DNA of 64,000 nucleotides. Source: Vicinamibacteria bacterium. GTDB taxonomy: Bacteria > Acidobacteriota > Vicinamibacteria > Marinacidobacterales > Marinacidobacteraceae. The position numbers and the translations under genes were made by a program. Below the pieces are notes generated by a model, which was not told the origin of the DNA, did not search any database, and worked only from the letters and a program-made list of their open reading frames with translations. The DNA lies in contig OZ246946.1 of the NCBI GenBank assembly GCA_965232015.1, positions 245,562-309,561 on the forward strand, given 5' to 3'. Of the stretch, positions 15,287 through 63,193 are shown in pieces (position 1 is the first letter of the stretch; the number at the start of each line of letters is the position of its first letter).

Positions 15287-15302
15287 CGTTCAGCCGTCTC
15301 CC

Positions 15303-17669: not shown

Positions 17670-17773
17670 GACTACCCCGAACCGGATTCTACCCGACGCC
17701 GGTCGGGCGGGACGGGCGCCTCGCAGCGCCGCGCAGCCGAAGCGCTGGCCCCTTGCGAACCGGCCGGCTCCGG

Positions 17774-30377: not shown

Positions 30378-30401
30378 ACGGATGCGACCAGCGCCTACGG
30401 A

Positions 30402-30908
30402 TCACCGGGCCGGCTTGCCGACCTTGCTCTGGTGCTGGGGACAGAGCTGCTCCAGAGGTACGCCGAGACGCTCCAGGAGAGCGCTCTGCTCGTCCCAGTC
30501 GCTGTCGGTGGCGTTAAGGATCGCTGCGCCGGCCTTCACGGCTACGGCCAGGAACTTCCGATCAGACGGATCGAGTTCGTTCTTGGGGAGCTCTGCGAAT
30601 CCTCGCGACTCGTCCGATGGCGTGATCCGTACCCACTCCGTTGCCGCGGTGTGCGATCCGCCCATGACGGCGATGCAGAATTCACTTCCAACGCCTCGGC
30701 CTGCTCGATTGTCGAGAAGTCTCTTCCGGTACTCACCCAGGACGCCCCACGACGCATCGACACAGACGATGGTCCGGCTGCGAGTCACTGCTTCGAGTCG
30801 CGCCGTGCACGCCCGTTGACAATCCAGGTCGGCGTGTGTGTCCACATCCCCACAGCTTCCCGCCTCGGCGGCGATCAGAACATTCGTGTCCACGACAACG
30901 CGTGTCAC
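30402..30908 (-). CDS. PIN-domain nuclease
   Basis: MTRVVVDTNVLIAAEAG and ATDSDWD acidic residues. GTG start overlaps the ATPase stop (GTGA). Confidence 0.8.
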   Translation of the reverse strand: MTRVVVDTNVLIAAEAGSCGDVDTHADLDCQRACTARLEAVTRSRTIVCVDASWGVLGEYRKRLLDNRAGRGVGSEFCIAVMGGSHTAATEWVRITPSDESRGFAELPKNELDPSDRKFLAVAVKAGAAILNATDSDWDEQSALLERLGVPLEQLCPQHQSKVGKPAR

Positions 30909-32296: not shown

Positions 32297-32354
32297 TTCG
32301 CCGGGATGGCGCCGAACGGTGACGGGCGGCTGCGCCCAAGCCCGTTTCCGAACT

Positions 32355-33747
32355 CTACCGGCGGATGAGGCCAAGGACGAACTCCTCGTGCATCCGTCGC
32401 TCGATCCCGGACCTCGTCGCTGCGCCCCAGCGAGCCGGCATCATCCGGCGGTCGCGATCCAGCCGCCGCCGACCGATGCCCGCGACCTCGAAACCGGTCT
32501 CCTCCGCGAGCGCCGCCAGCGCGAGGTGGGTCTCGACGTCGAGGCCGCGCAGCACGGAAGTGCCCACGACCACGATCGCCGCCCCTCCCGGCCGGAGGAC
32601 GCGCTCCGTTTCGCGCAGCACGGCCGCCATGTCCCCGAAGTAGCGCCGGAGAACCGCGGCCTTGCGCCGGTCGAGCTCCGCGAGGGCCGCCACCGTGCGT
32701 CCGCAGCGATCGGGCAGGTCGCCCCGGCCGCCGCCGAGCACGGCGTCGTGCCCGACGTAGCGCCGGCGCAGGCGGGTCAGATCGGCAATCCTCCAACCCA
32801 GCCACACCAGCGAGAACTTGTGCGCCCGCATGTAATCAATCGCGCCGTTGGCGTAGGGCGGCGACGTCACGACCAGATCCACGCCCTCGGGCGGCAACCC
32901 GGTGTCCGTCGCCGGGGCGTCGAGCACTCGGGCGGTCGGCGCGTCGTCCCCGGCCCCGGCCGGAGCGCCCCGGGACCGGACGATGCGGCGGAGACGGCCC
33001 TCGAACACCGCCAGCGCCGGTTTCGGCTGCTTCGCCTCGACCCGGTGGGGCCGGGTGTGGGCCAGATCCCGCGCCAGCGAGACGCCACCCGACTTGGCGA
33101 TGATCGTCGAAGAGAGGACGACCTCGAGGAATCTCCGCGTTCGGGGCTCGCGCACGCCGGAAACCGCGGCGGCGAGCGCTTCCAGCTCGAGCTGCTGCGC
33201 CGGGCGGAACCAGTAGTCCACGAACTTCCGCGTTGCGGCGTCGAAGCGGCGGTCGAGGTCGCGCGTCAGCCCGGCGGCATCGCTCCGCAGGCGGGCGCCG
33301 GCGAGCGCGAGAACATCGCGTCCCGCCTCCGCGGCGGCTCCCGGGTCCGGCGGAGCCAGCTTGGCGAGCGCGATCCGGCGGGCGAGCGGATCAATATCGC
33401 AGCCGATGGCTCGCCGCCCGAGCGACTGCGCCTCGACGAGGGTCGTTCCGGAGCCCGCCATCGGGTCGAGCACGGCGTCGCCGGGCCGCGACAGGACCTC
33501 GATGAACCGGCGGGGCAGGGCGGGGGGGAACTTCGCCGGGAACGGATGCCAGCGGTGGCGGCCGGACGAGCCCCGGCGCCCGTGGAAGCCGAGATCCGCG
33601 TCGAGCAGCGCCCGGAGCCGCTCGCCGACCGGTTGCACCTCCGCGTCGGCCGAAGTCTTCGAGCGCGGCGCTGCCGGGTCGGGGAGCGGGAACAGCGAGG
33701 GCGCCTCGGGCACGGTGCGTCCGGCGGCGCGATTGCGGCCCGGCATT
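32355..33747 (-). CDS. site-specific DNA methyltransferase (N6-adenine/N4-cytosine, PF01555-type, circularly permuted motif order)
   Basis: AdoMet motif HPFPAKFPPALPRRFIEVLSRPGDAVLDPMAGSGTT comes first, then catalytic TSPPY and RVLRPGGAAIVVVG. Alternative start at 33809. Confidence 0.8.
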
Positions 33748-33809: not shown

Positions 33810-34400
33810 GAGGCTGAAGCGCGCGGCGTGACATCTGCCGCAAACGACCCGGTCGAGGAGTCTTCACCCCCTTTTGGACGCTCGGTCGTCGCCTGCCCCC
33901 GCTGCGCCGTTCGTCTGCGTGAGGAGTGGGATGGCGGTGATGCAGCCGGACGTGTGGCGGGTACGCGCGGGCGGGGACGGCCCATGAACTCCGACGACGC
34001 AGTCTTGACGCTCATCGTGCTTGGCCGGTGGAACTGCGGCATCATCGTGGCGTGGTAACGGATGATCCGGCGCGACACCCGGCATGAGTTCGGCGCACTC
34101 CGCCGGGATCTCCGTCGCGGGTTCGCGCAGGCCCGCCAGGTACGACTCGAACGCCGGCGGGAGTTGGTGAGCCCGCTTTCCCGGGATGGAGCAGCGTCTT
34201 CGTCGGCATGACGACGGCGACCTCGACGCCATCGGTGGCGAACCAGTCGCACGTGTTCACCATCACGGCCTGGATTGCCCGTGGCTCACCTCTGCCACTG
34301 CACCTCGCGGGTGCGATGCGTGGTGGCAGCATACGAAGAATGATGCCGAGCCGACGCAACCTGTGAGCTGTGCGCCTCAGCCTGCCAATCGGTAGGATCA
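33810..34400 (-). pseudogene. gene remnant: several partial frame-shifted protein-like fragments, no intact ORF
   Basis: Fragments VMVNTCDWFATDGVEVAVVMPTKTLLHPGK, FESYLAGLREPATEIPAECAELMPG and IRYHATMMPQFHRPSTMSVKTASSEFMG lie in three different frames. Confidence 0.3.
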
Positions 34401-34820
34401 GCGGTCCCTGTTCGACCAGAGCGCTCGGAAACCCTCCTGGGTGAAGTGCCTGTCTCCGGTGAGGACATCGCTAATGTCGAGTTTCCGCATTACGACCATG
34501 GAGACGCAATCCGTCAGGCTGTAGCCCTTGTCCTCTCGCTGCTCGTACAAGTCCAAGCCGGCCAGGAACGAGCTCCGGGTCTGGGGTTCTACCCGGATGC
34601 TGCGGTCGTCGAGGATCTCTCGCACCGTGATCGTGGCGCGCTTTCTCGCACGGGATCCGAGCGTGCACAGTGCGGCAAGGAATTCGACCAGCACTTCATC
34701 TGTAGTCACGAGTTGGGCCCCTGCGACTGCGTTCCCGGCTCTTGTCGCGGCCCTGTGCCAAGGATCCCTCGGATTCGCCACGGCGATCCAGTACGCCGCG
34801 TCCACGAAGACTAGCTTCAC
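34398..34820 (-). CDS. PIN-domain VapC-like toxin
   Basis: MKLVFVDAAYWIA...TTDEVLVEF...TDCVSMVVMRKLDISDVLTGDRHF. GTG start overlaps the stop of the upstream partner. Confidence 0.8.
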   Translation of the reverse strand: MKLVFVDAAYWIAVANPRDPWHRAATRAGNAVAGAQLVTTDEVLVEFLAALCTLGSRARKRATITVREILDDRSIRVEPQTRSSFLAGLDLYEQREDKGYSLTDCVSMVVMRKLDISDVLTGDRHFTQEGFRALWSNRDR

Positions 34821-35722
34821 GTGTCGTCCACGCCGTAAATGTAGTGATCCAGCCGAGCGGACAAGTCACTTGGGAGCTTCTCCCACTCCTCATCGGGGAC
34901 ATCGGAGAAGATTTCGGCGATGCGCGCCTGGATAGCCGGTGCGTCCGTCAGAGAAGACGGTCGTCCGTCATCAACCAGAGTGATCGAGTCGGCCAGAGTG
35001 ACCTCGGTCAGAGCACCCATGGGTTCGAAGCGCCCCCTGCCAGCCACTCGGATCCGCGCCACCCGGTGTTCCTTGAGCGCCTCCGTGACAACCGCTTCCT
35101 GAGGCTTTGTGAAGCGGACGGGGATGCATCGCCCGTCATCCGTCCAGAGCTGAAACTTCCACCGGTGGACATCGGCTTCGAGCACCCGCCCTTCCAGGTA
35201 AATCGAGTCCGGGTACGGCTGGTCCATGAGGGAGCGGACGACGGTCCGCGTCTTATCGGACACGATCGTTGTCGGTCGGTTAGGGGAAGTGAAGGAAAAA
35301 CGCGCGCCCGCCGGAAGGTCTCGTCCCAACCCCTGACACACCCGCACGACGTGCATCGGAACACCTCGTGGAGGAGGCTCATCGCGATTGGCCGCTCCCA
35401 GCGTCTCGGAGGTCAACCGGACCGCTTCCTCCATCACCGTGGGGGCATCAAGCAGGGGAGTAGGGTCGGGCGAACGCGGCGCGAGCCGGATCGACACGCT
35501 TCCCGCCTCGATCGCCGTGAAACAGAGCTGAGTCCGTTCGTCGAAGCCCTTGGGGACGCGCTCGCGTGCCGGATGGCGCACCTTCCAGACAGCGCGAGCC
35601 GCCTCGGTCACGATCTTCTGGAACTGAAGCACGGTCCGGAGGGCACCCGCATCCAGCGCTCCACCCGCGTAGGGCTCCCCCCCAAAGTGGAGCCGCACGA
35701 GCTCCGAGCGTCCTGTCGTCAT
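34817..35722 (-). CDS. 301-aa hypothetical protein in the antitoxin position upstream of PIN toxin; no recognisable antitoxin fold
   Basis: MTTGRSELVRLHFGGEPYAGGALDAGALRTVLQFQKIVTEAARAVWK... Stop overlaps the PIN start. RBS GAGGGA. Confidence 0.5.
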   Translation of the reverse strand: MTTGRSELVRLHFGGEPYAGGALDAGALRTVLQFQKIVTEAARAVWKVRHPARERVPKGFDERTQLCFTAIEAGSVSIRLAPRSPDPTPLLDAPTVMEEAVRLTSETLGAANRDEPPPRGVPMHVVRVCQGLGRDLPAGARFSFTSPNRPTTIVSDKTRTVVRSLMDQPYPDSIYLEGRVLEADVHRWKFQLWTDDGRCIPVRFTKPQEAVVTEALKEHRVARIRVAGRGRFEPMGALTEVTLADSITLVDDGRPSSLTDAPAIQARIAEIFSDVPDEEWEKLPSDLSARLDHYIYGVDDT

Positions 35723-45620: not shown

Positions 45621-45808
45621 CGCCGGACTCCAGTCCGGCAATTTGCAGCCGGCGCTCCGCCCTCCAGTCCCCTGCCGGCGCGCCTTGCCGGCGCGCCGGA
45701 CTCCAGTCCGGCAATTTGCTGCCGGCGCTCCGCCCTCCAGTCCCTTGCCGGCGCGCCGGACTCCAGTCCGGCAATTTGCAGCCGGCGCTCCGCGCTGCCG
45801 GCGCGCCG
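45621..45808. repeat. REP-like repeat cluster (about 6 units)
   Basis: Repeated GCCGGACTCCAGTCCGGCAATTTGC units between convergent genes. Confidence 0.85.
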
Positions 45809-49813: not shown

Positions 49814-51775
49814 ATGCATTTCTCTTGTTGTCGCATCCTCTTTCTTGTGGGTTCCGCAGGGATCGCAGCCGGCTTCGCAGCTTCCGGCTGCGCCGCGCCG
49901 GCCCCCCGGTTCGACGAGGCCCGGCTCCTCGAGCACATCTCGACGCTCTCCTCGGACGAATTCGGAGGCCGCGCCCCCGGCTCGCCCGGTGAGGAGAAAA
50001 CCGTCGAGTTTCTGACCCGCGGCTTCGCCGAGGCGGGGGTCGAGCCCGGCAACCCGGCGCTCGACGGCGCGGCGGCGTGGACCCAGCCGGTCCCGCTCGT
50101 CGGCTACGGCGCGACCACGATGGAGGCTTCCTCGGATCCGGGCGGCGGCTGGACCCCCGGCGAGGCGTTCGTCGCGTGGACGCGCCGCGACGAGCCGGTG
50201 ACGGAGGCGTCGGGCGAGCTGGTGTTCGCGGGCTACGGCGTTCAGGCCCCCGAATACGGCTGGGACGACTTCGGGGACGCCGACCTCGACGGCAAGATCA
50301 TCGTGGTCCTCGTGAACGACCCGCCCGGCGACCACCACTTCGGTGGCGACGCGATGACCTACTACGGCCGCTGGACCTACAAGTACGAGCAGGCGCTCGC
50401 CGCCGGAGCTCTCGGCGCGCTGATCGTCCACGAGACCGGCCCGGCGGGGTATCCGTGGGAAGTCGTCCAGGGCTCGTGGACCGGCCCCCAGTTCGATCTC
50501 CGCGCCCCGGCCGGGGACGATGCGCCCGAGCATCTCCCGGTCCAGGGCTGGATCCATCTCGACCTCGCGACCTCGCTCTTCGCGGCGGCAGGCGCGGATT
50601 TCGCCGAGGCGAAGGCGCGCGCCGCCGACGCCGGGTTCGTCCCCGAGCCGCTCGGCGTCACCGCCGAGTTTCGGATCGAGACCACCCGCACCGAGCTCGA
50701 ATCGAACAACGTGATCGCCCGGATCCCGGGAACCGAAGCGCCCGACGAGACGGTGATCTACACCGCCCACTGGGACCACCTCGGGACCGCCGAAGGCATG
50801 GAGGGCGACAACATCTTCAACGGCGCATTCGACAACGCCACCGGGACGGCGGGTCTCCTCGCCCTCGCCGAGGCGTTCATGGCGGAGGGCGCGCCGCGCC
50901 GCAGCATCGTCTTCCTCGCCGTGACGGCAGAGGAGCAGGGGCTCCTCGGCTCACGCCACTACGCGGACAACCCGCTCTACCCCCGGGCCGACACGGTGGC
51001 GGCGCTGAACATGGACGGTCTGAACGTGTGGGGCCCGACGTCCGACATCACCGTCGTCGGTCTCGGCCAGTCCGATCTCGACGACGTGGCCGCGGAGGTC
51101 GCCGCCGGGCTCGGACGCACGCTCAGCCCCGACCCGGAGCCGGAGAAGGGCTATTACTACCGCTCCGACCACTTCGAGTTCGCCCGGGTGGGGATCCCGG
51201 CGTTCTATCCGGACACCGGCACCGACTTCATCGGTCGCAGCCCCGACTACGGCATGGAGGTCCGCGACGCCTACGTGGCCGAGCGCTACCACAAGCCCGG
51301 TGACGAAGTGCTGCCCGAGTGGGATCTCGGCGGCATGGTGACGGATCTCGAGTTCCTCTACCGCATGGGCCGGAGGCTCGCGGAGGACGACGACTGGCCC
51401 GCCTGGTCTCCCACCAGCGAGTTCCGCGCCCGCCGCCGGCGCGCCGGACTCCAGTCCGGCACCGAGCGTCCCGGCCAACCGGCGCCTCCCTGCCGGAGCG
51501 CCGGACTCCAGTCCGGCACCGAGCGTCCCGGCCAACCGGCGCCTCCCCCCCGGAGCGCCGGACTCCAGTCCCTTGCCGGCGCGCCGGACTCCAGTCCGGC
51601 AATTCCACGCCGGCGCACGCTGCGGGAGCGCCGGACTCCAGTCAGGCACCGGTCAAGAGGGTTGCGTGCCGGACTGGAGTCCGGCGCTCCAGGGCGCTCC
51701 ATCGCGACCGCGTCGGGGCGGCAGGATTTGAACCTGCGACCCCCTGATCCCGAACCAGGTGCTCTGCCAGACTGA
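49814..51775 (+). CDS. M28-family peptidase (PA domain + M28 aminopeptidase), lipoprotein
   Basis: Lipobox AASGC. Motifs HWDHLG, NGAFDNATG, FLAVTAEEQGLLGS, RSDHFEF. The 3' end has no in-frame stop until 51773, reading through the REP cluster into tRNA-Pro, so the true C-terminus is uncertain. Confidence 0.7.
   Translation: MHFSCCRILFLVGSAGIAAGFAASGCAAPAPRFDEARLLEHISTLSSDEFGGRAPGSPGEEKTVEFLTRGFAEAGVEPGNPALDGAAAWTQPVPLVGYGATTMEASSDPGGGWTPGEAFVAWTRRDEPVTEASGELVFAGYGVQAPEYGWDDFGDADLDGKIIVVLVNDPPGDHHFGGDAMTYYGRWTYKYEQALAAGALGALIVHETGPAGYPWEVVQGSWTGPQFDLRAPAGDDAPEHLPVQGWIHLDLATSLFAAAGADFAEAKARAADAGFVPEPLGVTAEFRIETTRTELESNNVIARIPGTEAPDETVIYTAHWDHLGTAEGMEGDNIFNGAFDNATGTAGLLALAEAFMAEGAPRRSIVFLAVTAEEQGLLGSRHYADNPLYPRADTVAALNMDGLNVWGPTSDITVVGLGQSDLDDVAAEVAAGLGRTLSPDPEPEKGYYYRSDHFEFARVGIPAFYPDTGTDFIGRSPDYGMEVRDAYVAERYHKPGDEVLPEWDLGGMVTDLEFLYRMGRRLAEDDDWPAWSPTSEFRARRRRAGLQSGTERPGQPAPPCRSAGLQSGTERPGQPAPPPRSAGLQSLAGAPDSSPAIPRRRTLRERRTPVRHRSRGLRAGLESGAPGRSIATASGRQDLNLRPPDPEPGALPD
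51431..51690. repeat. REP-like repeat cluster (about 7 units, both orientations)
   Basis: Repeated GCGCCGGACTCCAGTCCGGCACCGAGCGTCCCGGCCAACCGGCGCCTCCC superunits. Confidence 0.85.
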
Positions 51776-51786
51776 GCCACGCCCCG
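51713..51786 (-). tRNA. tRNA-Pro (anticodon CGG)
   Basis: Reverse complement CGGGGCGTGGCTCAGTCTGGCAGAGCACCTGGTTCGGGATCAGGGGGTCGCAGGTTCAAATCCTGCCGCCCCGA. Anticodon loop TTCGGGA is identical to E. coli tRNA-Pro(CGG). Confidence 0.85.
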
Positions 51787-51879: not shown

Positions 51880-52758
51880 TCAGCGGGACAGCCAGCGGAA
51901 GATGACTCTCGTCGCCTCCGCCAGCCCGGCGCCCAGACCGATCAGGGCGGCGCGCCGCCACCAGTCGGCGCGCTTCCTCCGGCGTGTCTCGCGCGCCATG
52001 ACAAGGGCCTCCAGCCGGTCGAAGCGGCGGAGGAGCTCCTGGATGCCTTCACGCAGCTCCGCCCGTTCGGCGCGAGCCTCGGCGAAGCCCTTTTCCCGCT
52101 CGGCGCGAGCCTCGGTGAAGCCCTTTTCGCGCTCGGCGCGAGCCTCGGCGAAGCCCTTCTCGCGCTCGGCGCGAGCCTCGGCGAAGCCCTTCTCGCGCTC
52201 GGCGCGAGCCTCGGCGAACCCGTCCTCCATGTCGGTTCGCGTCTTGGCGTCGGTCCTCTGGAGGTCGGACTTCGCTTCCGAGATGCGGTCAGCGAGCCGC
52301 TTCTCCATTGCCTCGCGCTCAGCGCGGGCCTCGGCGAAGCCCTTGTCCCGAGCAGCGCGGGCCTCGGCGAAGCCGCGCGCCACATCCGATCGGGTCTGGG
52401 CGTCGGACCTCTCGAGATCAGCCTTGGTCTCCGAGATGCGCTCGGTCAGCCGCTTCTCCGTCTCGTGTCGGTCCGCCCGGGCCTCCTCGCGCTGGTCGCG
52501 CGCCATGCGGACGGCGAGACCGAGGAATCCGCTCTCGGTGACGGGCGCCTCCGTCGGCCGGCCGGGCGGCGGAGCAGGCGGAGATGCGCCTGGATGCTCG
52601 GCGCCAGCCACCTTCGGCGACATGGACGACGAACTGGAGGGGCTCATGCGGGTCGCGCGCCTCGCGGGCGACGCGGATTCAGTGTAGGCCGTCTCCGAAG
52701 AGCCCGCAACCGATCCGGACGCCGGGGCGGCGCCAGGAGGTGCTTCTCGATGCTTCAT
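51880..52758 (-). CDS. coiled-coil protein with five 11-residue tandem repeats (KGFAEARAERE) and a C-terminal TM anchor
   Basis: 33-bp DNA tandem repeats at 52069-52230. C-terminus WWRRAALIGLGAGLAEATRVIFRWL. S/P-rich N-terminus. Start could be the internal M at 52506. Confidence 0.55.
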   Translation of the reverse strand: MKHREAPPGAAPASGSVAGSSETAYTESASPARRATRMSPSSSSSMSPKVAGAEHPGASPPAPPPGRPTEAPVTESGFLGLAVRMARDQREEARADRHETEKRLTERISETKADLERSDAQTRSDVARGFAEARAARDKGFAEARAEREAMEKRLADRISEAKSDLQRTDAKTRTDMEDGFAEARAEREKGFAEARAEREKGFAEARAEREKGFTEARAEREKGFAEARAERAELREGIQELLRRFDRLEALVMARETRRRKRADWWRRAALIGLGAGLAEATRVIFRWLSR

Positions 52759-53296: not shown

Positions 53297-55900
53297 ATGA
53301 CGCAGTTCACGAGGAAGTCGGTCCCCCGCGGGCTGACCCTCCTCCTTGCCCTGTTCCTGGGTGCCGGTCTCGTGCTCTCGGGATGCGGTGAGGACGAAAC
53401 CCCCGCCCCGGCGCCGGCTCCGGCCCCTGCGCCACCCCCTGCCCCCGAGCCTGAGCCCGAACCGGAACCCGAGCCAGAGCCCGAGCCGCCCGCTACGCCT
53501 ACCGGCCTCATGGTTTCGGAGACCACCGAAACCTCCATCACCTGGACCTGGGACGCCGTCGAAGGCGCGATCGGTTACGCAGTGCAGGCCAGCGCGGATC
53601 AGGTGTTCGACGACTCGGACATGATCCACCCTGCGGCCGAGACCACCTTCACCGCTGCGGACCTCGAGCCGGGCACCACCATGTCGGTCCGCGTGGCCGC
53701 CGCGGGAGCGCTCGACGGGTCGCTGAACAGCGCGTGGACGACCCACATCACCGCCACGTCGGCGGTGCCTCCTCCGGTGGTGATTCCGGTCCCGAGCGGC
53801 TTCATGGCCGAGGGTGGAGACGGCTCCATCACGTGGAGCTGGGACGCCGTTGAGGGCGCCGACGGGTATGCGATCCAGGTCAGCTCGGACGAGATGTTCG
53901 ATGACATGGACGCGACGACCTACACGATGGAGACCTCGCACACCGTCGAGGATCTCGGTTACTCCGAGAGCAGGTTCGCGCGAGTTGCGTCCACTGCTGG
54001 TGAGGGCGACGACATGATGATGAGCATGTGGAGCACCCACATGACGGGCATGTCGGCCGCCGCAGCTCCCCTGCCTCCGCCTTCCGTGACGTTCTCCCTG
54101 CCGGACGGTCAGAGCCACTTCATGGTCGCGGACGACGACGATGACGAGGCCACGGCCATGGCTTGGATCAACCCCAAGACCGTCGTGGAGTCGGACTCCA
54201 CCGCGATCATCACTCCGATGTTCGTGGACGGCGCCAACGGGGTCCATGTGGGCGCCAGTGACGACAACATGCCGTTCACCTACGTGGGAGCCGAGGACAA
54301 CTGGGAAATGCTCCAGAGCGCCGTGCTCGACGGTGGCGCGACCTTCATGGTCCAGCGGACCACGATGGGCGCCAACCAGGAGATGGAGCCGAGCAACGAT
54401 GTGTCCTACTACACCTGCGGTCCGTTCGAGTGCGCGGAGGGAGAGGACGCCCCGGATCTTTCGATCGCCAACTCCAAGGCCTGCACGGCTTGGGATCCGA
54501 TGGTGGAGATCCAGGTCGGCAAGGTGGACAACGACGTCATCGTTCCCGATGACGGTGAGGAAACCGCGGACGGCTTGAACACGAACGACGGTATCGACTT
54601 GGGCATCGTCACCAGCTCCAGTCTCGAGATGAATGTCAAGAGCGTCTTTTCTGGTGTTGAGGGAGGCACGAACACCTCTTCCACCGTTGAGGCCGCGAGC
54701 GGCAGCAACAAGACCCTCGAAGTGACGGCCGTCAACGGGGTGATCCGGATCGATGGAGACAACCTGGACACCGATGCCGACGAGGAGGACTACGTGGTCT
54801 GCGACAACGACTACACATTGGAAAATGTGAGCAGTAAGGCAGACCGGCCTGTGGGCTGCTTCCGGCTGATCGGTCCCGGCGCCATGGGCAGGGACGCTGC
54901 CAAGGGCCCTGACTACTTGTCCGGCTGGAGCATCGAGCTGAGTCCCGTGGACGGCGACGTGACTTGGGGCAACGTTGACTGGGAGGACGATCCGTTCGAG
55001 GATCTCGAGTGCGGCGCCGCCGATCCGATCATGGTGGCCGACCATGTGGATGTCTGCTCCATGTTCGAGGCCGAGGTGGATGGCGCCACCGCCCGGGGCT
55101 GGACCCCTGAAGTGGTGTTCGACGGGACGAGCAATCAGGTCACCATGTGGCGCGCCAGCACCCGCGCTGCCACTGACCACGAGGCGATGTTCAAGACGCT
55201 CTGGTTCGACGACAATCTGAATGGCAAGATCAAGAATGACGGGACCCTTGCCCGCGCACGCCCCGCGCCTGCGGATGGGGCTACTGCCAACGCCATGCAC
55301 GATCTCTACGATCAGAATGAGAACGATGGGAACCTTGAGGTGATCTGGGAGCACCTGACCGACTCCGATGGGGACCTGATCAGCGCCGTGGGCGACCTCG
55401 GCAAGGCTGACCTTCTGAGCGACTCGGACAACAAGAGTACTGTCGACGATGAGCGCACGATTTTGGTGGAGACGTGCACCGGAGACGGGGCGACTTGGAC
55501 GCCGGCAAGTTACACCGGTACCGACCCCAGTGCCGGTTGTGTCGGGGGTACCTACAACACCACCGGCGACTTGGCGATCAAGACCAACCCGGACGGCAAC
55601 GCGGACAACTATGTCGATACTGCCCCCTCGGTCGTCTTCTCTGACTTCCGCGGATGCAGCGAGGATGACGGCGGCGACGATGCCGACGGTTCCGAATGCG
55701 ATGCGACGTGGGTCCACGATGTCACGATTCTGTTCGCGGACGGCACGTTCGGCTGCAGCACGACTCGAGATGTGACCATCACGTGCGAGTGGGACGCTGA
55801 CGGCGGAATGGCCCAGGGCCGTAACGCTCTGCCGAACAGCTTTGACGGAGAGGGCGATGACAGCAATCTCGACAACTTCCTCAAGTGCACCGCCAACTAG
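53297..55900 (+). CDS. secreted lipoprotein with (PE)n linker, two FN3-like domains and a large acidic C-terminal domain
   Basis: Signal/lipobox LLLALFLGAGLVLSGC. AGGAGG RBS. PAPAPAPAPPPAPEPEPEPEPEPEP linker. FN3 pattern PTGLMVSETTETSITWTWDAVEGAIGYAVQ. About 60% GC. An in-frame upstream ATG at 53189 (MIFTRRR...) also has an RBS. Confidence 0.7.
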   Translation: MTQFTRKSVPRGLTLLLALFLGAGLVLSGCGEDETPAPAPAPAPAPPPAPEPEPEPEPEPEPEPPATPTGLMVSETTETSITWTWDAVEGAIGYAVQASADQVFDDSDMIHPAAETTFTAADLEPGTTMSVRVAAAGALDGSLNSAWTTHITATSAVPPPVVIPVPSGFMAEGGDGSITWSWDAVEGADGYAIQVSSDEMFDDMDATTYTMETSHTVEDLGYSESRFARVASTAGEGDDMMMSMWSTHMTGMSAAAAPLPPPSVTFSLPDGQSHFMVADDDDDEATAMAWINPKTVVESDSTAIITPMFVDGANGVHVGASDDNMPFTYVGAEDNWEMLQSAVLDGGATFMVQRTTMGANQEMEPSNDVSYYTCGPFECAEGEDAPDLSIANSKACTAWDPMVEIQVGKVDNDVIVPDDGEETADGLNTNDGIDLGIVTSSSLEMNVKSVFSGVEGGTNTSSTVEAASGSNKTLEVTAVNGVIRIDGDNLDTDADEEDYVVCDNDYTLENVSSKADRPVGCFRLIGPGAMGRDAAKGPDYLSGWSIELSPVDGDVTWGNVDWEDDPFEDLECGAADPIMVADHVDVCSMFEAEVDGATARGWTPEVVFDGTSNQVTMWRASTRAATDHEAMFKTLWFDDNLNGKIKNDGTLARARPAPADGATANAMHDLYDQNENDGNLEVIWEHLTDSDGDLISAVGDLGKADLLSDSDNKSTVDDERTILVETCTGDGATWTPASYTGTDPSAGCVGGTYNTTGDLAIKTNPDGNADNYVDTAPSVVFSDFRGCSEDDGGDDADGSECDATWVHDVTILFADGTFGCSTTRDVTITCEWDADGGMAQGRNALPNSFDGEGDDSNLDNFLKCTAN

Positions 55901-55918
55901 GATGCGGCGTCTCCTGAA

Positions 55919-55973
55919 GTCCGGCTGAGTTCGGACCTCAGAGAGCCCCGGGGTCTTCGGACCTCGGGGCTCT
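55919..55973 (+). terminator. tandem GC-rich hairpins downstream of FN3 gene 1 (GTCCG-8nt-CGGAC; AGAGCCCCG-14nt-CGGGGCTCT)
   Basis: Perfect stems; weak U-tract. Confidence 0.3.
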
Positions 55974-56100
55974 TGGCGTGTACGCCGGCTATGGAGCGCG
56001 TGTCCTCACCAGTCCTCCCGGCCAGTTCTCCGGGTGGGGGGTGGGGCGGGTGGAGTGCGGCACGGTCCCAGGGGGAGCACGGGACTCCAATCGGGCACGG

Positions 56101-56163
56101 TGTCAATGGCTGTCAATGGCCATCGAAAATGCGACACTTCTGGCCGCCGAAAATGCGACACTT
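56101..56163. promoter_or_regulatory. two tandem direct-repeat pairs: TGTCAATGGC x2 and CGAAAATGCGACACTT x2 (8-nt spacer) in a low-GC patch
   Basis: Exact repeats. The arrangement is typical of direct-repeat transcription factor binding sites. Confidence 0.3.
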
Positions 56164-56563
56164 TGGGGGTCGAGGCTCGTCGCGGGAAGCTCGCCCCGTT
56201 CATTGGCGTGGAGGCGCGATGCGGCCGAGCCCGGGGTCGTTCGGGGCTGCGTTCGGGCTTGCGGTCCAGGGCGGATCGGTATCCCTCGCCGCGGGGCCCG
56301 CTTCGGCGGGGCGCCTCGGAGACGAGGCGGTCGGCTCGTGTGTCGGGTGCGGGGCGGTCAACTCGCGCTCGCCCGCGGCGAGGGAAGGATCCGGCCCGTT
56401 CCGGGTCGCAACGCCGAGGGAGGCGGAGCAGCGCGAGCGTCCGGGCGGTGCGGGGTCGCCTGGAACGGCCCGGGCGGCGTTGGCGCGCCAGCCGGGGCCC
56501 GATCGCAGGCGAGGTTGGGCCGGGCGTCCGTACGTCGAACTCCGCCCGGGAGGATCGGGGACC

Positions 56564-56600
56564 GCCGGCGCGCCGGGCTCCAGTCGGGCAATTGCCGGCC
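56564..56600. repeat. degenerate REP-like unit
   Basis: GCCGGCGCGCCGGGCTCCAGTCGGGCAATTGCCGGCC. Confidence 0.6.
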
Positions 56601-56879
56601 GGGCTGGGCCGCGCAGAGAGAGGTCAGTTGGGTCCCCGTTAGCGAACGGTTGCGCGCCGGCCGGCGGCGCTGCGAGCCCCTGATAGGCTAGACGCCAAGG
56701 CATGGGGGAACCGCCCGACGGGTTGGTCCTCGCATGTCGCCGCAGGGGCCAGAGCGATCGGCCGCCCGCGATGACCGGTAGCGGGCCGCGGGCTGAGTGT
56801 GGTACCATGCGGCTGATAGATGTGTCCTGACATGCGCGGGCAGAGCCTGCGCCGCAACACCGGCCGGGAGGTAGGTGAC

Positions 56880-59447
56880 ATGAAGTCGCTCACAGGCAAG
56901 TTTTCGTCCGTCCGCGGATGGGCTTTGCTGCTGATCCTGTTCCTCGGCGCGGGCCTCATGATGGCGGCCTGCGGGGATGACGAACCGGCGACCACTCCGG
57001 TGCCGGCTCCGGCCCCCGAGCCCGAGCCCGAGCCCGAGCCCGATCCGCCGGCTGTGCCGACTGGCCTCCGCATCGCCGCCATCGGTCAGGACTTCATCGA
57101 GTGGATCTGGACGCCGGTGGGGAACGTGAGCGGCTACGACGTGCAATACAGCGTCAACGAGGTGTTCACCGACGAGGACGAGATCATCGCCCGGACGGCC
57201 GAGCAGGTCACCTACCGCCGGGAGGGCCTCGAACCGGAGGCTAGCGGGTCGGTGCGGGTGCGGTCCGCCGCCGGAACCGGCGACGATCGGATCACGAGCG
57301 GCTGGTCCACCCACGTGACCGGGATGGCGATGGCCGTTCCGGTGGCGCCCCCGACTCCGACCGGCCTCGCGGTTTCGGCGACGGAGACTTCGATCACCTG
57401 GACCTGGACCGCCGCCCCGGGAGCGGAGGGCTACGTGGTGCAGATCAGCGAGGATGAGGTGTTCGAGACGATGTTCGAGGGGGCGGACCACTACGCGGTG
57501 ACCCGCGAGACGTCCCACACGATCGCCGGGCTGGAGGCGGAGACGACCCGGTATGCGCGGGTGGCGGCCGGGGTGCTGACGGGCGCGGTTCCTTCGCTGG
57601 ATCCGGGCGACTACCTGCTCAGCGCGTGGACGATCCACGCGACGGGGATGACGGAGGCGGCGGCGCCGGAGAGGCCGCCAGCCCCGGCGAACGTGCGGCT
57701 GAGGATGCGGGGCTCCGACTACCTCGAGTGGACGTGGGACGCGGTCGAGGGGGCGAGCGGCTACCAGAGCCAGTTCAGCGCCAGTTCGACCTTCCCGAGC
57801 GGGCAGGCGGGCAGCGAGATCCACCAGGGGATGGCCAGCACCACCCGCCGGGTCGCGAACCTGGACGCGGAATCGGACGGCCACCTCCGGGTGCGGACTT
57901 ACACGGGGACTCTGACCGAGCCGACCTACGGGGACTGGAGCGACGGCCATCGGGCGACGACCGCCGAGCCGCCGCCAGCGGTGGCGCTCGACGCTCCCGA
58001 GGGCCTGCGGGGCTCGGCCGAGACTGCGACTTCGATCACGCTCACGTGGGACGAGGTGGACGATGCCGACGCCTACGAGGTGCGGCAGCGGGAGCCTGGC
58101 GGCGCGTGGTCTGACGCGAGCTGCGGATCGGCGACCGCGGACAACGAGGTTGCCGACGAGGAATGCGTCGCGAGCGGCCTGGACTCGGGCACCGACTACG
58201 ACTTCGGGGTTCGGGCGCTCCCGGCGAACAACGACAGGGCGCACAACGCCAGCACGTGGAGCGACACGCTGGAGTCGAGCACGACCGGCACCTCCACCAC
58301 GACCCCACCCCCAACCACCTCCGGCGGCGAGAGCGGACCGCTCAACATCAGTTGGGACAGCAGCGGCGGAACGATCACCTGGTATTGGGACCAGGCCGCA
58401 GACCGAACCTCCGACTACGAGAGATGGAAGTCTGCAGCGTCTGCGGACGGCGTGGATGCCGCCATAAAGTGTCCCGCAGCCAGCGCCGCCGTTTGGGCCG
58501 CCGGCGGCGGGACTCGCACCCTGGACGGAGACACGCGGGAGCCCCAGGAGGCTGCCACGCCTGGCAGCGCGTACCTCCTGTGCGTTCGGTCCGTCAAGGA
58601 AAACACGCGGAGCGCGGTCTCCTACGCCTGGGCGATCGTCCCTACCGACATCACGGGCGGCGAGCCCAGCGCAGAATCCAGACAGGTGACGACCGCCATC
58701 AGCTTTGGCATCACTCTCGATCCGGGCTTCACCTACCAGCTTCGCCGCGTTTCCACGAGCGTCAACGACGATACCTTCGACGCGCGCGACTGCAGCGGTG
58801 GCACGGCGCTCCGCGATGAGGTCAGCGATTTCCCGAGTCTCCCACTGGGGTCCTACGAGGTGGGAGCCCTGTCTCCATACACTCGCTATGGGCTGTGCTA
58901 TCGCGCCACAAACGACGCCGGCGCCTCGGAGTGGCAGTTCACGGAGAACGGCGTCCTGACTCTTCCTGGCCGGCCGAGCGCACCTGTCGCGGCGGTCAGT
59001 TCCATCGCGCATGATGCGACGTCCCGCGATGCCGTGTGGAACGTGGCGACTAGCGGAAACGCCCGGGTGCCGCGGGCTCACGAGGCATACGACGTCAAAG
59101 TGATCTCGATGCGCTCAGCCAACCCCTACGTCAGCGGTGACACCGGCCCGAGGAGCCCTGACCTGTCGCTAGCGGATTGTGAAGCCACCTCGGCGCGCAC
59201 GAATACGACATCCGAAGACGTTGCGCCGGGAGATCGGAGCAACAATCAGAGGGGATTCACCGTGACACACGATGTGGAGGGGCCCGCAACGCCAACGGCA
59301 GAGGAGCCGAACATGGACCAGGACTACCGGGTCTGCGTTCGCGCTCACCTGGGCGGCGGCACGCACCAGGGGGCCGCCGACGCGCGAAAGGGCCCGTGGG
59401 TCCTTGGTTCGCTCGTCGTGAAGAGGGACGCTCCTGCGTCGAACTAG
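56880..59447 (+). CDS. secreted lipoprotein with (PE)n linker and about six FN3-like domains; paralog of 53297..55900
   Basis: MKSLTGKFSSVRGWALLLILFLGAGLMMAAC lipobox. RBS GGGAGG. Repeated PTGL...SITWTW... FN3 modules. Confidence 0.7.
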   Translation: MKSLTGKFSSVRGWALLLILFLGAGLMMAACGDDEPATTPVPAPAPEPEPEPEPDPPAVPTGLRIAAIGQDFIEWIWTPVGNVSGYDVQYSVNEVFTDEDEIIARTAEQVTYRREGLEPEASGSVRVRSAAGTGDDRITSGWSTHVTGMAMAVPVAPPTPTGLAVSATETSITWTWTAAPGAEGYVVQISEDEVFETMFEGADHYAVTRETSHTIAGLEAETTRYARVAAGVLTGAVPSLDPGDYLLSAWTIHATGMTEAAAPERPPAPANVRLRMRGSDYLEWTWDAVEGASGYQSQFSASSTFPSGQAGSEIHQGMASTTRRVANLDAESDGHLRVRTYTGTLTEPTYGDWSDGHRATTAEPPPAVALDAPEGLRGSAETATSITLTWDEVDDADAYEVRQREPGGAWSDASCGSATADNEVADEECVASGLDSGTDYDFGVRALPANNDRAHNASTWSDTLESSTTGTSTTTPPPTTSGGESGPLNISWDSSGGTITWYWDQAADRTSDYERWKSAASADGVDAAIKCPAASAAVWAAGGGTRTLDGDTREPQEAATPGSAYLLCVRSVKENTRSAVSYAWAIVPTDITGGEPSAESRQVTTAISFGITLDPGFTYQLRRVSTSVNDDTFDARDCSGGTALRDEVSDFPSLPLGSYEVGALSPYTRYGLCYRATNDAGASEWQFTENGVLTLPGRPSAPVAAVSSIAHDATSRDAVWNVATSGNARVPRAHEAYDVKVISMRSANPYVSGDTGPRSPDLSLADCEATSARTNTTSEDVAPGDRSNNQRGFTVTHDVEGPATPTAEEPNMDQDYRVCVRAHLGGGTHQGAADARKGPWVLGSLVVKRDAPASN

Positions 59448-59689
59448 CCCTTCTCGTCCGGCCCTGGGTCGTCCCCGGGGCCGGCGTCATGAACCCGGCG
59501 TCGCTCGGCGCCGGGTTCTCGCTTGTACGGCGTGATCGCTCACGCCACCCGATCGCGGCCCGCGATCAGCGTGCGTCGCCCACCTCCTACGGGACTCTCC
59601 GCGCCGAGAGTTGGCGAGACTCTCCGGGCGCCCTGCTCATCGCGGTCATCCTGACCGTCGCTGCCGGTCGCGAGGGTGAGTACAAACAA

Positions 59690-59719
59690 GACCCGGCGCG
59701 TCTTCGGACGCGCCGGGTC
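59690..59719 (-). terminator. strong intrinsic-terminator hairpin GACCCGGCGCGTC-TTCG-GACGCGCCGGGTC with U-tract (TTGTTTGT) on the minus strand; usable by both convergent genes
   Basis: 13-bp perfect stem, tetraloop, and a T-rich tail in the minus-strand reading direction. Confidence 0.5.
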
Positions 59720-60143
59720 TTCGCATGTACGGGCTGCACGGCGACGGGGTCAAGGCGATTCGAAGAGGCGGCGCTCTCCGGGTCGTGAGGAAACGCGGTT
59801 CCGCCTGTTTCCGGTCGGAAACAGTGGGGACGGCGGGGCCTGTACAACGACCGAGTCCGCGACCCACTGCGCCCTGTTCCCCGCGGTCGGTTCCTGGATG
59901 CCTCAGCCGCGTCTCGCGCTGATCGTGCCCGGTGCCTAATCGCCGGAACCCGCCGGCGCCACCTCCACATGCGTACGCCCCAGCGCGTCCCCGTTTGCCC
60001 AGTCCAGGAAGTCGAAGCTCGGGCGGGATCCCGAAGCGGCCGGAACTCAAGCCGCAAGGCTACTCCCGCCCGTGGCGACGCACCTACCCTAGGCACGGGG
60101 GGGCGGCCGAAGCCGCCCCCGCTACCAGTCCTGTTGATGACAG

Positions 60144-62435
60144 CTACTCGGTCTTCTGTCTGATTTCCGAAGAGTCGCTGATGACCCAAGGACCGGCGCG
60201 CCAACCGCCTTCAGCCTTTACTCGAACACACAGCTGCACCCTCCGGTCGTCAAGGTCCGGATCGTCAAGCTCAGGGCGTGCGAATTCGCCGGACTCGACT
60301 GTGATTCCTTGCGGGTTGTCCGTCGCAGAAATCAGGGCGCTCTCGCTCGGGTCGAATCCCGGAGTGCTAAGGGTACCCGCGCTGCACGCAGCCTGTACAT
60401 CCCTGGAGGGAACGCTCGTAACAGTCCTGAGTGCGGTACCGGTATCGCTGTCGTGATCGTACTTTTCGCGATAGCTGAGAGTTCTCGCGTCGAACTCAGC
60501 GCCATTCCTCGGGACATCCCGCCTACTGCGGACGGGCAGCGTCCACACTACCTTGCTCGCGGTGTCGTGATCCAGTGTCGTTCTCGAACTGTCCACGACA
60601 GGCCTCGGCGGGGCGGCTGGAAGAGTAGTGACCTGGCCTGTAGTTGCCACCCACGATGTCTGCCCTTTGGCGTTGTGGTACCGCATGCAGAGGGAGTACC
60701 TCGTGAAAGATTGAAGACCTTGGCTGAAGGGGACGTCAACATCTACCAGTGGGACGTCTGTGTCGCCCTGAGCAACGACCGCTCCCGAGGCACACGCACT
60801 CCCCAACTCGCTCGCACTTGCCGGGACGTTGTCGCGTCCGGGTGTGGCTATCGTGCGGAGGTCATAGTTGAAACCGCCCGCGATATTCGCAACAGTCCAT
60901 TGAACCGATGTGGTTCGACTTCCGTCCTCCCGGTCAGTGAAGGTGCCGGCAGCGGGGAGGGCCGGAGTCGTAATCGCCCACGCGAACGAAACATCATCCT
61001 CTTCGTCGTGTGGCCTCACGCACAGCAAACGAGTGTTTCCCGGCTCCAAACTCAGGCTAGTCAAAGTGTGAGAGGTCTGTGCGGAGTTGTATCCGGCCGT
61101 GTTGGCGTCTGCTGGCCAGGTCACCGCGGTACCGGTACAGGGGTTTGAGGAGTCGCTATAGGTGGTTGCAGTAGAGACTACGAAGTCATACCGCCCCTCT
61201 CCAACACGATCCCAGATCCAAGTGATGCTAGTGGCCGTACTCTCCCAACGGACGTTCAGGTTTCCGGAGCCGCCGCCGGTGGTCGGGGGTGGAGTGGTCG
61301 TGGAGGTGCCGGTGGTGCGCGACTCCAGCGTGTCGCTCCACGCGCTGGCGTTGTGCGCCCTGTCGTTGTTCGCCGGGAGCGCCCGAACCCCGAAGTCGTA
61401 GTCGGTGCCCGAGTCCAGGCCGCTGGCCACGCATTCCTCGTCGGCAACCTCGTTGTCCGCGGTCGCCGATCCGCAGCTCGCGTCAGACCACGCGCCGCCA
61501 GGCTCCCGCTGCCGCACCTCGTAGGTGTCGGCATCGTCCACCTCGTCCCAGGTGAGCGTGATCGAAGTCGCAGTCTCGGCGGAGCCCCGCAGTCCCTCGG
61601 GAGCACCGAGCGCCACCGCTGGCGGCGGCTCGGCGGTCGTCGCCCGATGGCCGTCGCTCCAGTCCCCGTAGGTCGGCTCGGTCAGAGTCCCCGTGTAAGT
61701 CCGCACCCGGAGGTGGCCCTCCGATTCCGCGTCCAGGTTCGCGACCCGGCGGGTGGTGCTGGCCATCCCCTGGTGGATCTCGCTGCCCGCCTGCCCGCTC
61801 GGGAAGGTCGAACTGGCGCTGAACTGGCTCTGGTAGCCGCTCGCCCCCTCGACCGCGTCCCACGTCCACTCGAGGAAGTCGGAGCCCCGCGTCCTCAGCC
61901 GGACGTTCGCCGGGGCTGGCGGCCTCTCCGGCGCCGCCGCCTCCGTCATCCCCGTCGCGTGGATCGTCCACGCGCTGAGCAGGTAGTCGCCCGGATCCAG
62001 CGAAGGAACCGCGCCCGTCAGCACCCCGGCCGCCACCCGCGCATACCGGGTCGTCTCCGCCTCCAGCCCGGCGATCGTGTGGGACGTCTCGCGGGTCACC
62101 GCGTAGTGGTCCGCCCCCTCGAACATCGTCTCGAACACCTCATCTTCGCTGATCTGCACCACGTAGCCCTGCGCTCCCGGGGCCGCGGTCCAGGTCCAGG
62201 TGATCGAAGTCTCCGTCGCCGAGACCGCGAGGCCGGTGGGAGTCGGGGGCGCCACCGGAACGGCCATCGCCATCCCGGTCACATGGGTGGACCAGTCGCT
62301 CGTGATCCGATCGTCGTCGGTTCCGGCGGCGGACCGCACCCGCACCGACCCGCTAGCCTCCGGTTCGAGGCCCTCCCGGCGGTAGGTGACCTGCTCGGCC
62401 GTCCGGGCGATGATCTCGTCCTCGTCGGTGAACAC
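60144..62435 (-). pseudogene. 5'-truncated inverted paralog of the FN3 lipoprotein at 56880..59447 (no signal peptide, lacks first FN3); break-point at a REP element
   Basis: The first 480 residues are near-identical at the DNA level to 57135-58315. Homology ends exactly at the REP unit at 62468. The remaining C-terminus is divergent but FN3-like. Only a GTG start and no signal peptide. Confidence 0.55.
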
Positions 62436-62467
62436 CTCGTTGACGCTGTATTGCGGCCAGCGCGCCT

Positions 62468-62500
62468 CTGCCGGCGCGCCGGACTCCAGTCCGGCAATTC
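62468..62500. repeat. REP-like unit at the duplication break-point
   Basis: CTGCCGGCGCGCCGGACTCCAGTCCGGCAATTC. Confidence 0.8.
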
Positions 62501-62594
62501 ACCAAGGCAATGCGGGTCGCGGCCCCGCTCTGGAGAACCCCACCGGGAGCGCCTTCGGCCGGTGTCGGCCATCAGGAACGGGCGCCCGATGCGG

Positions 62595-63193
62595 CTATGC
62601 CGGCCAGCCCATCTCGTCGAAACCGGACCGCAGCTCATCAAGGCTCTCGTCCACTGTCCGGACATGGGCGTTCACGTGCTCCGCGTCGTCGAGCGCCGGG
62701 CCGCAGGCAACCGCCGCGGCGGTATTCAGCCCCAAGTCGCCCCACCAGACCCCCGTGGCCTTCTCGAGCATCGGACTGGATCCGAGCACGTAGCCGAGCC
62801 GCAGCCTCGCCATCCCGTAGCCTTGGCGAAGGTGCGAGCGACGATCACCGGGCCGTCCGCCACCGCGAGGGACACGGCGTCCTCTCTTTCGTCCCGGAAC
62901 TCGCCGTAGGCCTCATCCACGATCAGGATCCCGCCGCAGGAGAACCGCTCGGCCACAGAGACGATGTCGGCGCGCGAGACCGGGGCGCCGGTGGGGTTGT
63001 TCGGGTTCGCCAGATACACGATCCGGGTGTCGCGACGGATCGCCTGACGCATCGCCACGACATTGAGCGTCCCTTCGGGGCCCATCGGAGCGCGGATCAC
63101 TTCCGCGCCGATCGCCTCCGCGAGGCCGCCCCACCAGCCGCAGGTGGTTTCGCGGAGCACGACGCTCGTAGCTCCCGGCTCGCCCGTACACAC
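62595..63193 (-). pseudogene. class I/II aminotransferase (HisC-like) remnant: 5'-truncated and carrying a 1-nt frameshift
   Basis: Frame A gives VYLANPNNPTGAPVSRADIVSVAERFSCGGILIVDEAYGEF...VARTFAKATG. Frame B continues MARLRLGYVLGS. Removing one nt restores the consensus RTFAKATGMARLRLGY. The N-terminal about 100 aa are absent. Confidence 0.6.

Follow-up and report, generated by a model that had tools for sequence, protein, structure and literature searches.

Architecture of the locus

We analysed a 64,000-nucleotide (nt) stretch of DNA (the window) from a Vicinamibacteria bacterium of the phylum Acidobacteriota (GenBank assembly GCA_965232015.1, contig OZ246946.1, positions 245,562 to 309,561). 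Three open reading frames (ORFs) of the window, named g1, g2 and g3, encode related proteins with fibronectin type III (FN3) domains. We focus on g2 and g3, which share a long inverted repeat and which we examined as a candidate inversion switch of a surface lipoprotein. The letters A, B and C denote types of C-terminal cassette.

Table 1. Features of the g1–g3 region, in window coordinates (aa, amino acids; UTR, untranslated region; REP, repetitive extragenic palindromic; IS, insertion sequence)
Feature	Position	Strand	Evidence or remark
g1, upstream paralogous lipoprotein, 867 aa	53297–55900	+	ORF; fn3 match in Pfam
Solo end of an IS21-family element	56096–56440	+	alignment with the right end of the complete IS21 of L001
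Upstream region of the expression site, probable promoter and 5'UTR	56766–56879	+	conserved, single-copy
g2, expressed full-length lipoprotein, 855 aa	56880–59447	+	ORF; Pfam fn3 E=9e-23
N-terminal segment found only at the expression site: signal peptide, lipobox, (CCCGAG)n PE linker, start of FN3-1	56880–57142	+	
Left arm of the inverted repeat: most of FN3-1 through FN3-4, then disordered linker	57143–58328	+	
Cassette A, C-terminal 372 aa, now joined to the expression site	58329–59447	+	
Spacer between the two cassette stops, with probable terminator hairpins	59448–60143	.	
g3, 5'-truncated silent copy, 763-aa ORF	60144–62435	-	no signal peptide, no usable ribosome-binding site
Cassette B, silent C-terminal 374 aa, intact ORF	60144–61268	-	
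Right arm of the inverted repeat	61269–62454	-	
REP unit abutting the outer end of the right arm	62470–62499	+	perfect copy
Class I/II aminotransferase remnant upstream of g3	62537–63193	-	Pfam PF00155

Pfam fn3 domains were found in g1, g2 and g3; the matches passed the gathering threshold of PF00041 and agree with an FN3 fold. A first-pass annotation of this DNA, made from the sequence alone, had likewise described three related FN3 lipoprotein genes. The g2 protein consists of a signal peptide with a lipobox (...GAGLMMAAC31G), a PA/PE linker, four FN3 domains and three variable beta-sandwich domains. A lipobox is also present in g1 (...GLVLSGC30G) and absent from g3. Cys31 was invariant across an alignment of 24 sequences, and with both a signal peptide and a lipobox Cys, g1 and g2 are predicted lipoproteins. 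In these two genes the PA/PE linker is encoded by (CCCGAG)n; g3 contains neither linker nor signal peptide (the annotation had noted the missing signal peptide), and its homology to g2 starts at g2 codon 88.

An AlphaFold2 model of g2 (mean predicted local distance difference test, pLDDT, 78) comprised seven beta domains: four confident FN3 domains at residues ~61–470 and three beta-sandwich domains at residues 485–850, modelled with lower confidence. Foldseek matched this model to eukaryotic FN3 arrays (fibronectin, LAR and thick-filament proteins). Since the inner end of the arm falls within a disordered linker (g2 residues 474–483, pLDDT<50), the boundary of the repeat is also a domain boundary. 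Beyond it, cassettes A and B are arranged tail-to-tail, with 696 nt between the stop codons of g2 and g3. The protein sequences of the two cassettes are ~27% identical. Six Cys are in register between them, which suggests a conserved scaffold with variable surfaces.

A repeat finder followed by base-by-base comparison aligned the two arms without gaps over 1186 nt; identity is 97.6%, and 18 of the 29 mismatches affect third codon positions. The near-identical, inverted partial copy next to a REP unit that had been proposed for g3 is therefore real, with arms slightly shifted from the positions first given (57135–58315 and 61280–62468). Homology ended abruptly at both arm ends, and the N-terminal segment of g2 has no copy on the g3 side. 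The REP unit, of which the window holds 11 copies against 0 expected, sits 15 nt outside the right arm. Further inverted matches in the window were 28-nt ones at chance level, and the cassettes share no 3' sequence. When the segment between the arms was flipped in silico, an intact 857-aa lipoprotein with cassette B and a 761-aa head-less copy with cassette A resulted. Every recombinant is well-formed because the arm boundaries coincide with the domain linker.

GC content, which had been described as lower in these genes, was indeed low in g1 (0.64) and cassette B (0.60); the arms, at 0.72, are not below the window average of 0.70. At third codon positions, GC content (GC3) was 0.91 in the arms, 0.77 in cassette A and 0.65 in cassette B. 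This gap between arms and cassettes could stem either from gene conversion with a GC bias acting on the arms or from cassettes that are foreign or fast-evolving in origin.

Related loci in other genomes

A protein search with g2 returned a family of at least several hundred proteins of variable length at E <= 0.001, with a near-invariant signal peptide (MKSLTGKFSSARGWALLLILFLGAGL.VAACGDEE). In a collection of species-representative genomes, the family was almost confined to metagenome-assembled genomes (MAGs) titled Acidobacteria or Vicinamibacteria. Their isolate labels include bin61, SB0661 and Plut, which we take to stand for sponge or coral metagenomes. A scan of Joint Genome Institute (JGI) metagenomes revealed no close relatives.

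The g2/g3 arrangement was present in three retrieved loci (L001, L002 and L027). L001 comes from a sister genome with ~94% identity to the window in its flanks; the locus comprises g1, g2 and an inverted head-less copy, with arms of 1191 nt that are 99% identical to each other. The distant relative L002 shows the same layout (arms of 1193 nt at 99%), and its arms are ~77% identical to those of the window. L027, from a strain of the same sample as L002, is collinear with L002. In the window, L001 and L002 the head-less copy is truncated at the same nucleotide, and thus the arrangement predates the divergence of these lineages. The first-pass annotation had taken the junction as a sign of REP-mediated rearrangement. 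As a recent event this is not tenable, since a truncation shared by genomes whose arms are only ~77% identical must be ancient. The truncation abuts a REP unit in the window and in L002; this junction says nothing of current REP activity.

Long inverted repeats may in general mislead assemblers, and a collapsed or mis-joined repeat was therefore considered. Nothing specific points to one here. The 29 differences between the arms are incompatible with a collapsed copy, both ORFs are in frame, and architecture and junctions are common to three independent assemblies, some of whose contigs are named circular. An assembly artefact is almost certainly the wrong explanation, and the feature is not a recent accident either. 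Short-read MAG contigs are too short to be informative on long repeats; L021, for example, ends inside an inverted repeat of 93% identity.

Concerted evolution of the arms

Arms of the same genome were 97.6–99.1% identical to each other, arms of the window and L001 96.4–96.7%, and arms of the window or L001 compared to those of L002 76–78%. Among the four arms of the window and L001, 23 informative sites group the arms by genome and 3 by position. The latter are located at the extreme inner end of the arms, while the genome-grouping sites span the whole arm (alignment columns 47–1141). Within the window, differences between the two arms fall in clusters (gap-variance p=0.008; the longest stretch of identity measures 242 nt), as would be expected of patchy conversion tracts. 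The pattern indicates that the arms are kept alike by ongoing exchange (concerted evolution) and not by recent duplication.

A diversity-generating retroelement was rejected as the source of variation: the mismatches show no adenine specificity but comprise every type of change, the majority at codon position 3. No reverse transcriptase was found among the neighbouring ORFs scanned with Pfam.

Inversion and exchange of cassettes

The inner segments of the window and L001, the two genomes compared here, share just two matches, both reversed and collinear. The first joins cassette A (58334–58900) to L001 16921–16349, the second the spacer (59687–60087) to L001 13077–12676 at 87% identity. Using tblastn, we found that the silent cassette of L001 is a complete A-type cassette, split by an IS21 element. 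Altogether, a protein identity matrix distinguished three cassette types with 27–31% aa identity to one another; for cassette A, the values against the other two types were 27–30%. Type A occupies the expression site in the window and the silent site in L001 (55% aa identity between these copies). Type B was seen at silent sites only (window, L002 and L027; 47–54% aa identity to the window copy), and type C only at expression sites (L001, L002, L027 and L028; 44–46% to the L001 copy). From the window to L001, the spacer is flipped in accordance with the change of site of type A, and both are predicted by an inversion through the arms. Within ~94% identical flanks, the inner segment is inverted and one cassette is also replaced.

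Gene conversion between the arms clearly occurs, and a silent donor might be copied without any inversion, in the manner of pilE/pilS or vlsE. However, an entire cassette can be copied only if homology flanks it on either side, and there is none 3' of the window cassettes. In addition, the inner segment of the sister genome is physically inverted, spacer included. We consider non-reciprocal conversion as the sole process highly improbable.

Proteins of co-occurring strains were 96–100% identical up to residue ~450 and 45–84% identical thereafter. Judged by these alignments, the cassettes are hypervariable, with identity collapsing exactly at the boundary of arm and cassette. B-like cassettes also form the C-terminus of full-length family members with a signal peptide in other places; cassette B is, for example, 42% identical to the C-terminus of P0027. 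The comparative data are in line with the guess of the first-pass annotation that these genes encode surface proteins that diversify or vary in phase; the layout of an inversion switch, with conserved and homogenised arms around tail-to-tail cassettes, had gone unseen. The comparisons across genomes indicate that the feature is real, conserved and recombinationally active.

A second, independent example comes from the g1 subfamily. In the complete genome L041, two tail-to-tail genes carry arms of 1238 nt at 100% identity. Its near-identical relative L042 has the partner's cassette at the expression site, with a reversed match of 99.9%. A further breakpoint is involved, and we regard this pair as supportive rather than decisive.

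On the contig of L042, two family genes lie head-to-head with a zero-spacer junction (L029 9271–10596, junction 9933/9934). Each of the fused genes is cut within the PE linker, and their arms are 86% complementary. In the L041 counterpart, an integrase gene and both 5' ends lie between the genes. The junction is either a deletion variant or an assembly problem.

Expression signals

Similarity of the window to L001, L002 and L028 begins ~100–125 nt 5' of the g2 start codon, and GGGAGG is found ~8 nt before the ATG. The ~115 nt preceding g2 are conserved in every relative. The g2 promoter probably lies within this conserved upstream region. A scan for sigma-70 promoters yielded zero matches, a result that is uninformative for this phylum. 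In g3, GAGG stands directly against the GTG start, a spacing that is unusable for ribosome binding, and the conserved region upstream of g2 has no counterpart.

A scan for terminator-like structures, followed by folding with z-scores, detected hairpins in the spacer. One lies 3' of cassette A (59491–59518, dG -33.4 kcal/mol, z -3.8) and another after cassette B (60099–60120, dG -30.9 kcal/mol, z -1.65). Between them, a hairpin with a 15-bp palindromic stem (59688–59721) reached dG -39.7/-39.9 kcal/mol and z -6.9/-8.6 on the two strands. The spacer hairpins are probably terminators for whichever cassette is read. Rfam searches of the spacers gave nothing meaningful and no non-coding RNA.

Possible selection on the silent gene

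Although no expression signals belong to cassette B itself, its frame of 374 codons is open. Silent B-type cassettes are down to ~50% aa identity, yet they are open, with one frameshift in L002 that is absent from L027. We polarised unique substitutions in the window arms against L001. The silent arm had 7 synonymous and 5 non-synonymous changes and the expressed arm 6 and 6; among differences fixed in both arms of a genome the ratio was 18:5. Since 7 of 12 changes in the silent arm are synonymous versus a neutral expectation of ~3 of 12 (binomial p ~0.014, our estimate), this arm is unlike a neutral pseudogene.

These data bear on the possibility that the locus is a relic. In that case, g3 would be a decaying partial duplicate, conversion or inversion would happen occasionally without being selected, and the silent cassette would never be usefully expressed. 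Lesions in silent copies (the IS21 element in L001 and the frameshift in L002) fit such a history, as do the 2.4% divergence of the window arms and the scars of mobile elements at the locus (REP units, solo IS21 end and truncated aminotransferase). However, the truncation junction and the arm boundaries persist across lineages of ~77% identity with silent cassettes still open, and the skew towards synonymous changes in the silent arm is not that of decay. Moreover, the same cassette type is expressed in one genome and silent in another, and arm boundaries that match a domain linker yield well-formed recombinants. A relic is thus an unlikely explanation in our view.

A proposed inversion switch

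We propose that the locus is probably a two-cassette inversion switch of a variable surface lipoprotein. A single expression site (56766–57142) would supply the conserved upstream region, signal peptide, lipobox, PE linker and start of FN3-1. It would be followed by the 1.2-kb block of four FN3 domains, which recurs in inverted orientation 2.9 kb downstream. Between these arms, the tail-to-tail cassettes A and B would each provide three putatively disulphide-stabilised beta-sandwich domains and a terminator-like hairpin. A reciprocal crossover anywhere in the arms would invert the 2.9-kb segment, placing cassette B behind the expression site (857 aa) and parking cassette A on the head-less copy. 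Promoter and signal peptide would stay fixed, while the three C-terminal domains would be swapped. Gene conversion, that is, non-reciprocal exchange between the arms, would keep them near-identical. In this way, a eukaryote-like FN3 protein would vary reversibly in its distal half, presumably the most exposed part. Such a switch would operate on a surface-exposed protein and invert within populations at a useful rate; host recognition or phage would be the likely selective pressure.

Several observations weigh against this proposal. Inversion alone does not convert the window into L001; one further event is needed, as the slot of cassette B in the window corresponds to type C in L001. No chimera of N-terminus, arm and cassette B was present among the 120 best database matches. 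L002 and L027, the sole comparable g2/g3 pair from co-occurring strains, are in the same orientation. The damage to silent cassettes in two of the three genomes with the g2/g3 layout, L001 and L002, would fit slow decay too, and tyrosine integrases adjoin related loci elsewhere. Finally, the window arms are 2.4% diverged, compared to 3.4% between the window and L001. Homogenisation must therefore be rare on an evolutionary scale in the window lineage. Crossovers alone, however, erase no differences.

Exchange between the arms is most likely mediated by general homologous recombination of the RecA type, and the switch would then depend on RecA. This is favoured by the length of the arms, by their homogenisation from end to end and by the absence of a nearby recombinase. 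Within the 1.2-kb arms, identical runs measure 137–242 nt. Neither tyrosine nor serine recombinases were detectable in the window or L001 by Pfam scans and tblastn with the integrases of related loci, and the upstream neighbours in the window are mostly housekeeping genes according to Pfam (for example GatB, aconitase and pantothenate kinase). General recombination is further favoured because gene pairs flanking an integrase (L003, L005) have arms of 84–88% identity only.

Alternatively, a dedicated tyrosine recombinase encoded elsewhere in this genome, homologous to the integrases beside related loci, might cut short sites inside the arms, comparable to Rci in the R64 shufflon or Xer1 at the Mycoplasma vpma locus, and the long arms would merely be conserved domains surrounding its targets. 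A P4-type integrase (Arm-DNA-bind_3 plus Phage_integrase) adjoins g1-like genes in L002, L027, L005/L041, L012 and L029, with 58–66% identity among the three copies compared (L002, L005 and L012). In L003 and L005, an integrase of a second type separates divergent family genes. In addition, the recombinases of programmed inversions are usually, but not always, encoded nearby according to a survey by Milman et al. (NAR 2023, PMC9881135). However, tblastn with the integrases of these loci found nothing at E<=1e-3 in either the 64-kb window or L001. With a fixed crossover site, arms of 1.2 kb would not be homogenised from end to end, whereas the sites that group the arms by genome extend over nearly the whole alignment. 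The divergent pairs that flank integrases have remained unhomogenised. The integrases could equally be those of an island; a tRNA-Pro gene adjoins the locus in the window, L001 and L012. We therefore judge site-specific inversion to have only a small chance of being correct.

Beyond the window, cassettes may be exchanged independently of recombinases throughout the family, from a shared pool of at least three deeply diverged C-terminal types, by inversion between expressed and silent slots and, through the conserved arms, by recombination between strains of uncultured, apparently sponge- and coral-associated Vicinamibacteria. Their eukaryote-like FN3 surface lipoproteins would thereby vary antigenically or functionally. 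We put this wider view forward tentatively, as a possibility somewhat less likely to be right than wrong.

Comparison with known systems

Arms of 1.2 kb seem long for the class of programmed inversions. In the survey by Milman et al. (PMC9881135), gene-altering programmed inversions are predicted by long inverted repeats, a short intergenic distance, a tail-to-tail arrangement with 5'-proximal repeats and asymmetry at the 5' ends. All four attributes are present at our locus: the repeats lie inside two nearby coding sequences, g2 and g3; these are tail-to-tail, with the arms at g2 codon 88 and at the very start of g3; and g3 lacks upstream region, signal peptide and linker. The nearby recombinase associated with this class is missing from the window. 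The same class has been named 'partial intergenic invertons' (Chanin et al., bioRxiv 10.1101/2023.03.11.532203). The words 'Acidobacteria' and 'fibronectin' are both absent from the main text of the Milman survey (PMC9881135). The locus would add to the catalogue of gene-altering inversions a case with long arms and no adjacent recombinase, from a phylum that is unrepresented there.

Functionally, the closest resemblance is to the sap locus of Campylobacter fetus. Dworkin and Blaser reportedly described in 1996–97 how S-layer genes of this bacterium invert between conserved coding regions that are hundreds of bp long, dependent on RecA and without a dedicated invertase. In both cases a surface protein varies by way of long conserved blocks of paralogues, and the silent homologues are complete in their variable parts. 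The conserved sap block, however, is the 5' end including the start codon, and a single promoter is flipped between cassettes of opposite orientation. In the window, promoter and N-terminus would stay fixed outside the invertible segment while 3' cassettes flip, and the arms exclude the start codon. The sap protein forms an S-layer and is unrelated to the FN3 lipoprotein described here.

A constant N-terminus combined by inversion with alternative C-termini of an adhesin or tail-fibre-type protein is also found in the R64 shufflon (pilV) and the G and C segments of the phages Mu and P1. These systems use sites of 19–34 bp and an adjacent recombinase (Rci, Gin or Cin). Our locus differs from the shufflon and from Gin, Cin and Hin systems in its 1.2-kb homology and in the lack of a recombinase in the window. 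Variable lipoprotein loci of Mycoplasma, such as the vpma genes of M. agalactiae (PMC5634654), likewise form a family of surface lipoproteins with a strongly conserved signal peptide and 5' region and variable distal parts, of which one member is expressed and the rest are silent, and they switch by DNA recombination. In the vpma case, however, the site-specific recombinase Xer1 brings genes without promoters under a single one; the bacterium is a pathogen of animals, and the proteins are non-homologous to ours. The locus also differs from the conversion systems pilS and vlsE, whose donor cassettes have homology on both sides, as homology here is found only 5' of the cassettes.

The class of mechanism is already known, while the host phylum and the habitat are, to our knowledge, new for such a system. 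We know of no earlier programmed surface-variation system from Acidobacteriota or from symbionts of marine invertebrates. Divergence of the cassettes far outpaces that of the chromosome at large, which points to strong diversifying pressure on the symbionts. Sponge-associated genomes contain an excess of FN3 proteins, with a presumed role in host attachment (Robbins et al., ISME J 2021, PMC8163846). If exchange across the whole family is true, the host or its phages would discriminate among surface variants of the symbionts.

Paralogues, neighbouring genes and mobile elements

The upstream gene g1 encodes two FN3 domains followed by an acidic, Cys-rich region of ~600 aa without recognised fold. 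A signal peptide common to g1 and g2 had been proposed, and the proteins are indeed ~43% identical over their first ~255 residues. The resemblance does not extend further: in BLAST searches the C-terminal ~600 aa of g1 had no match to g2 or g3. An inverted partner of g1 was not found within the window. A g1-like paralogue lies on the same contig of 3.88 Mb outside the window (P0136, 808 aa, 64% identical to g1, no FN3 match), and the sister genome contains an additional g1-like copy (P0126). Because of these further paralogues, the C-terminal domain of g1 represents a multi-copy family of its own.

The hexamer repeats (CCCGAG)n at 53444–53487 in g1 and 57015–57043 in g2 correspond to the PE linker. 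Linker length varies across family members, and in-frame slippage may change the length of the stalk.

No named adhesin or S-layer family was identified: Pfam, NCBIfam and PHROGs matched FN3 modules only, plus a far-sub-threshold NCBIfam match of g1 to SslE. The suggestion of S-layer-like proteins consequently found no support. The PHROGs matches concern the FN3-like part of phage major-tail-protein profiles. A phage tail fibre with an invertible C-terminus was rejected, given that these matches are mere FN3-like decorations and the proteins carry lipoprotein signal peptides.

The exact direct repeats that had been reported between g1 and g2 (56101–56163) are present: GAAAATGCGACACTT occurs twice, at 56125 and 56149, versus 0.01 expected. 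The same motif is found at both ends of the intact IS21 element (~13658–16365) that interrupts the silent cassette of L001. A role as phase-variation or regulatory motif was therefore rejected, as the repeats (56096–56163) match the multiple terminal repeats of IS21.

The REP family GCCGGCGCGCCGGACTCCAGTCCGGCAATT has 11 sites within 11367–62499, often in arrays or inverted pairs. Arrays are located at 45687–45776 and 51426–51604. In L002, a Y1 transposase gene (PF01797, RAYT-like; 17584–18135) lies amid such repeats. The aminotransferase remnant beside the REP unit covers only positions 108–237 of the PF00155 profile; the gene is fragmented in L001 and intact in L002 (416 aa).

The tRNA-Pro gene of the window (anticodon CGG, 51712–51786) has the locus on its 5' side, without an integrase. 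A tRNA-Pro gene also borders the locus in L001 and L012, which underlies the island hypothesis. Between the tRNA gene and g1, an ORF on the minus strand (51880–52758, 292 aa) had no match in Pfam or NCBIfam. It contains a 33-nt tandem repeat (52067–52218, 4.6 copies, 96% matches) that encodes an 11-residue repeat of the EREKGFAEARA type. A shorter ORF of 193 aa occupies this position in L001.

Further upstream in the window, patches of lower GC content (0.60–0.63) at 30000–32400 and 34000–35000 flank a DNA methyltransferase gene (PF01555, 32355–33809). These surroundings may be an acquired segment or the remnant of a restriction-modification system.

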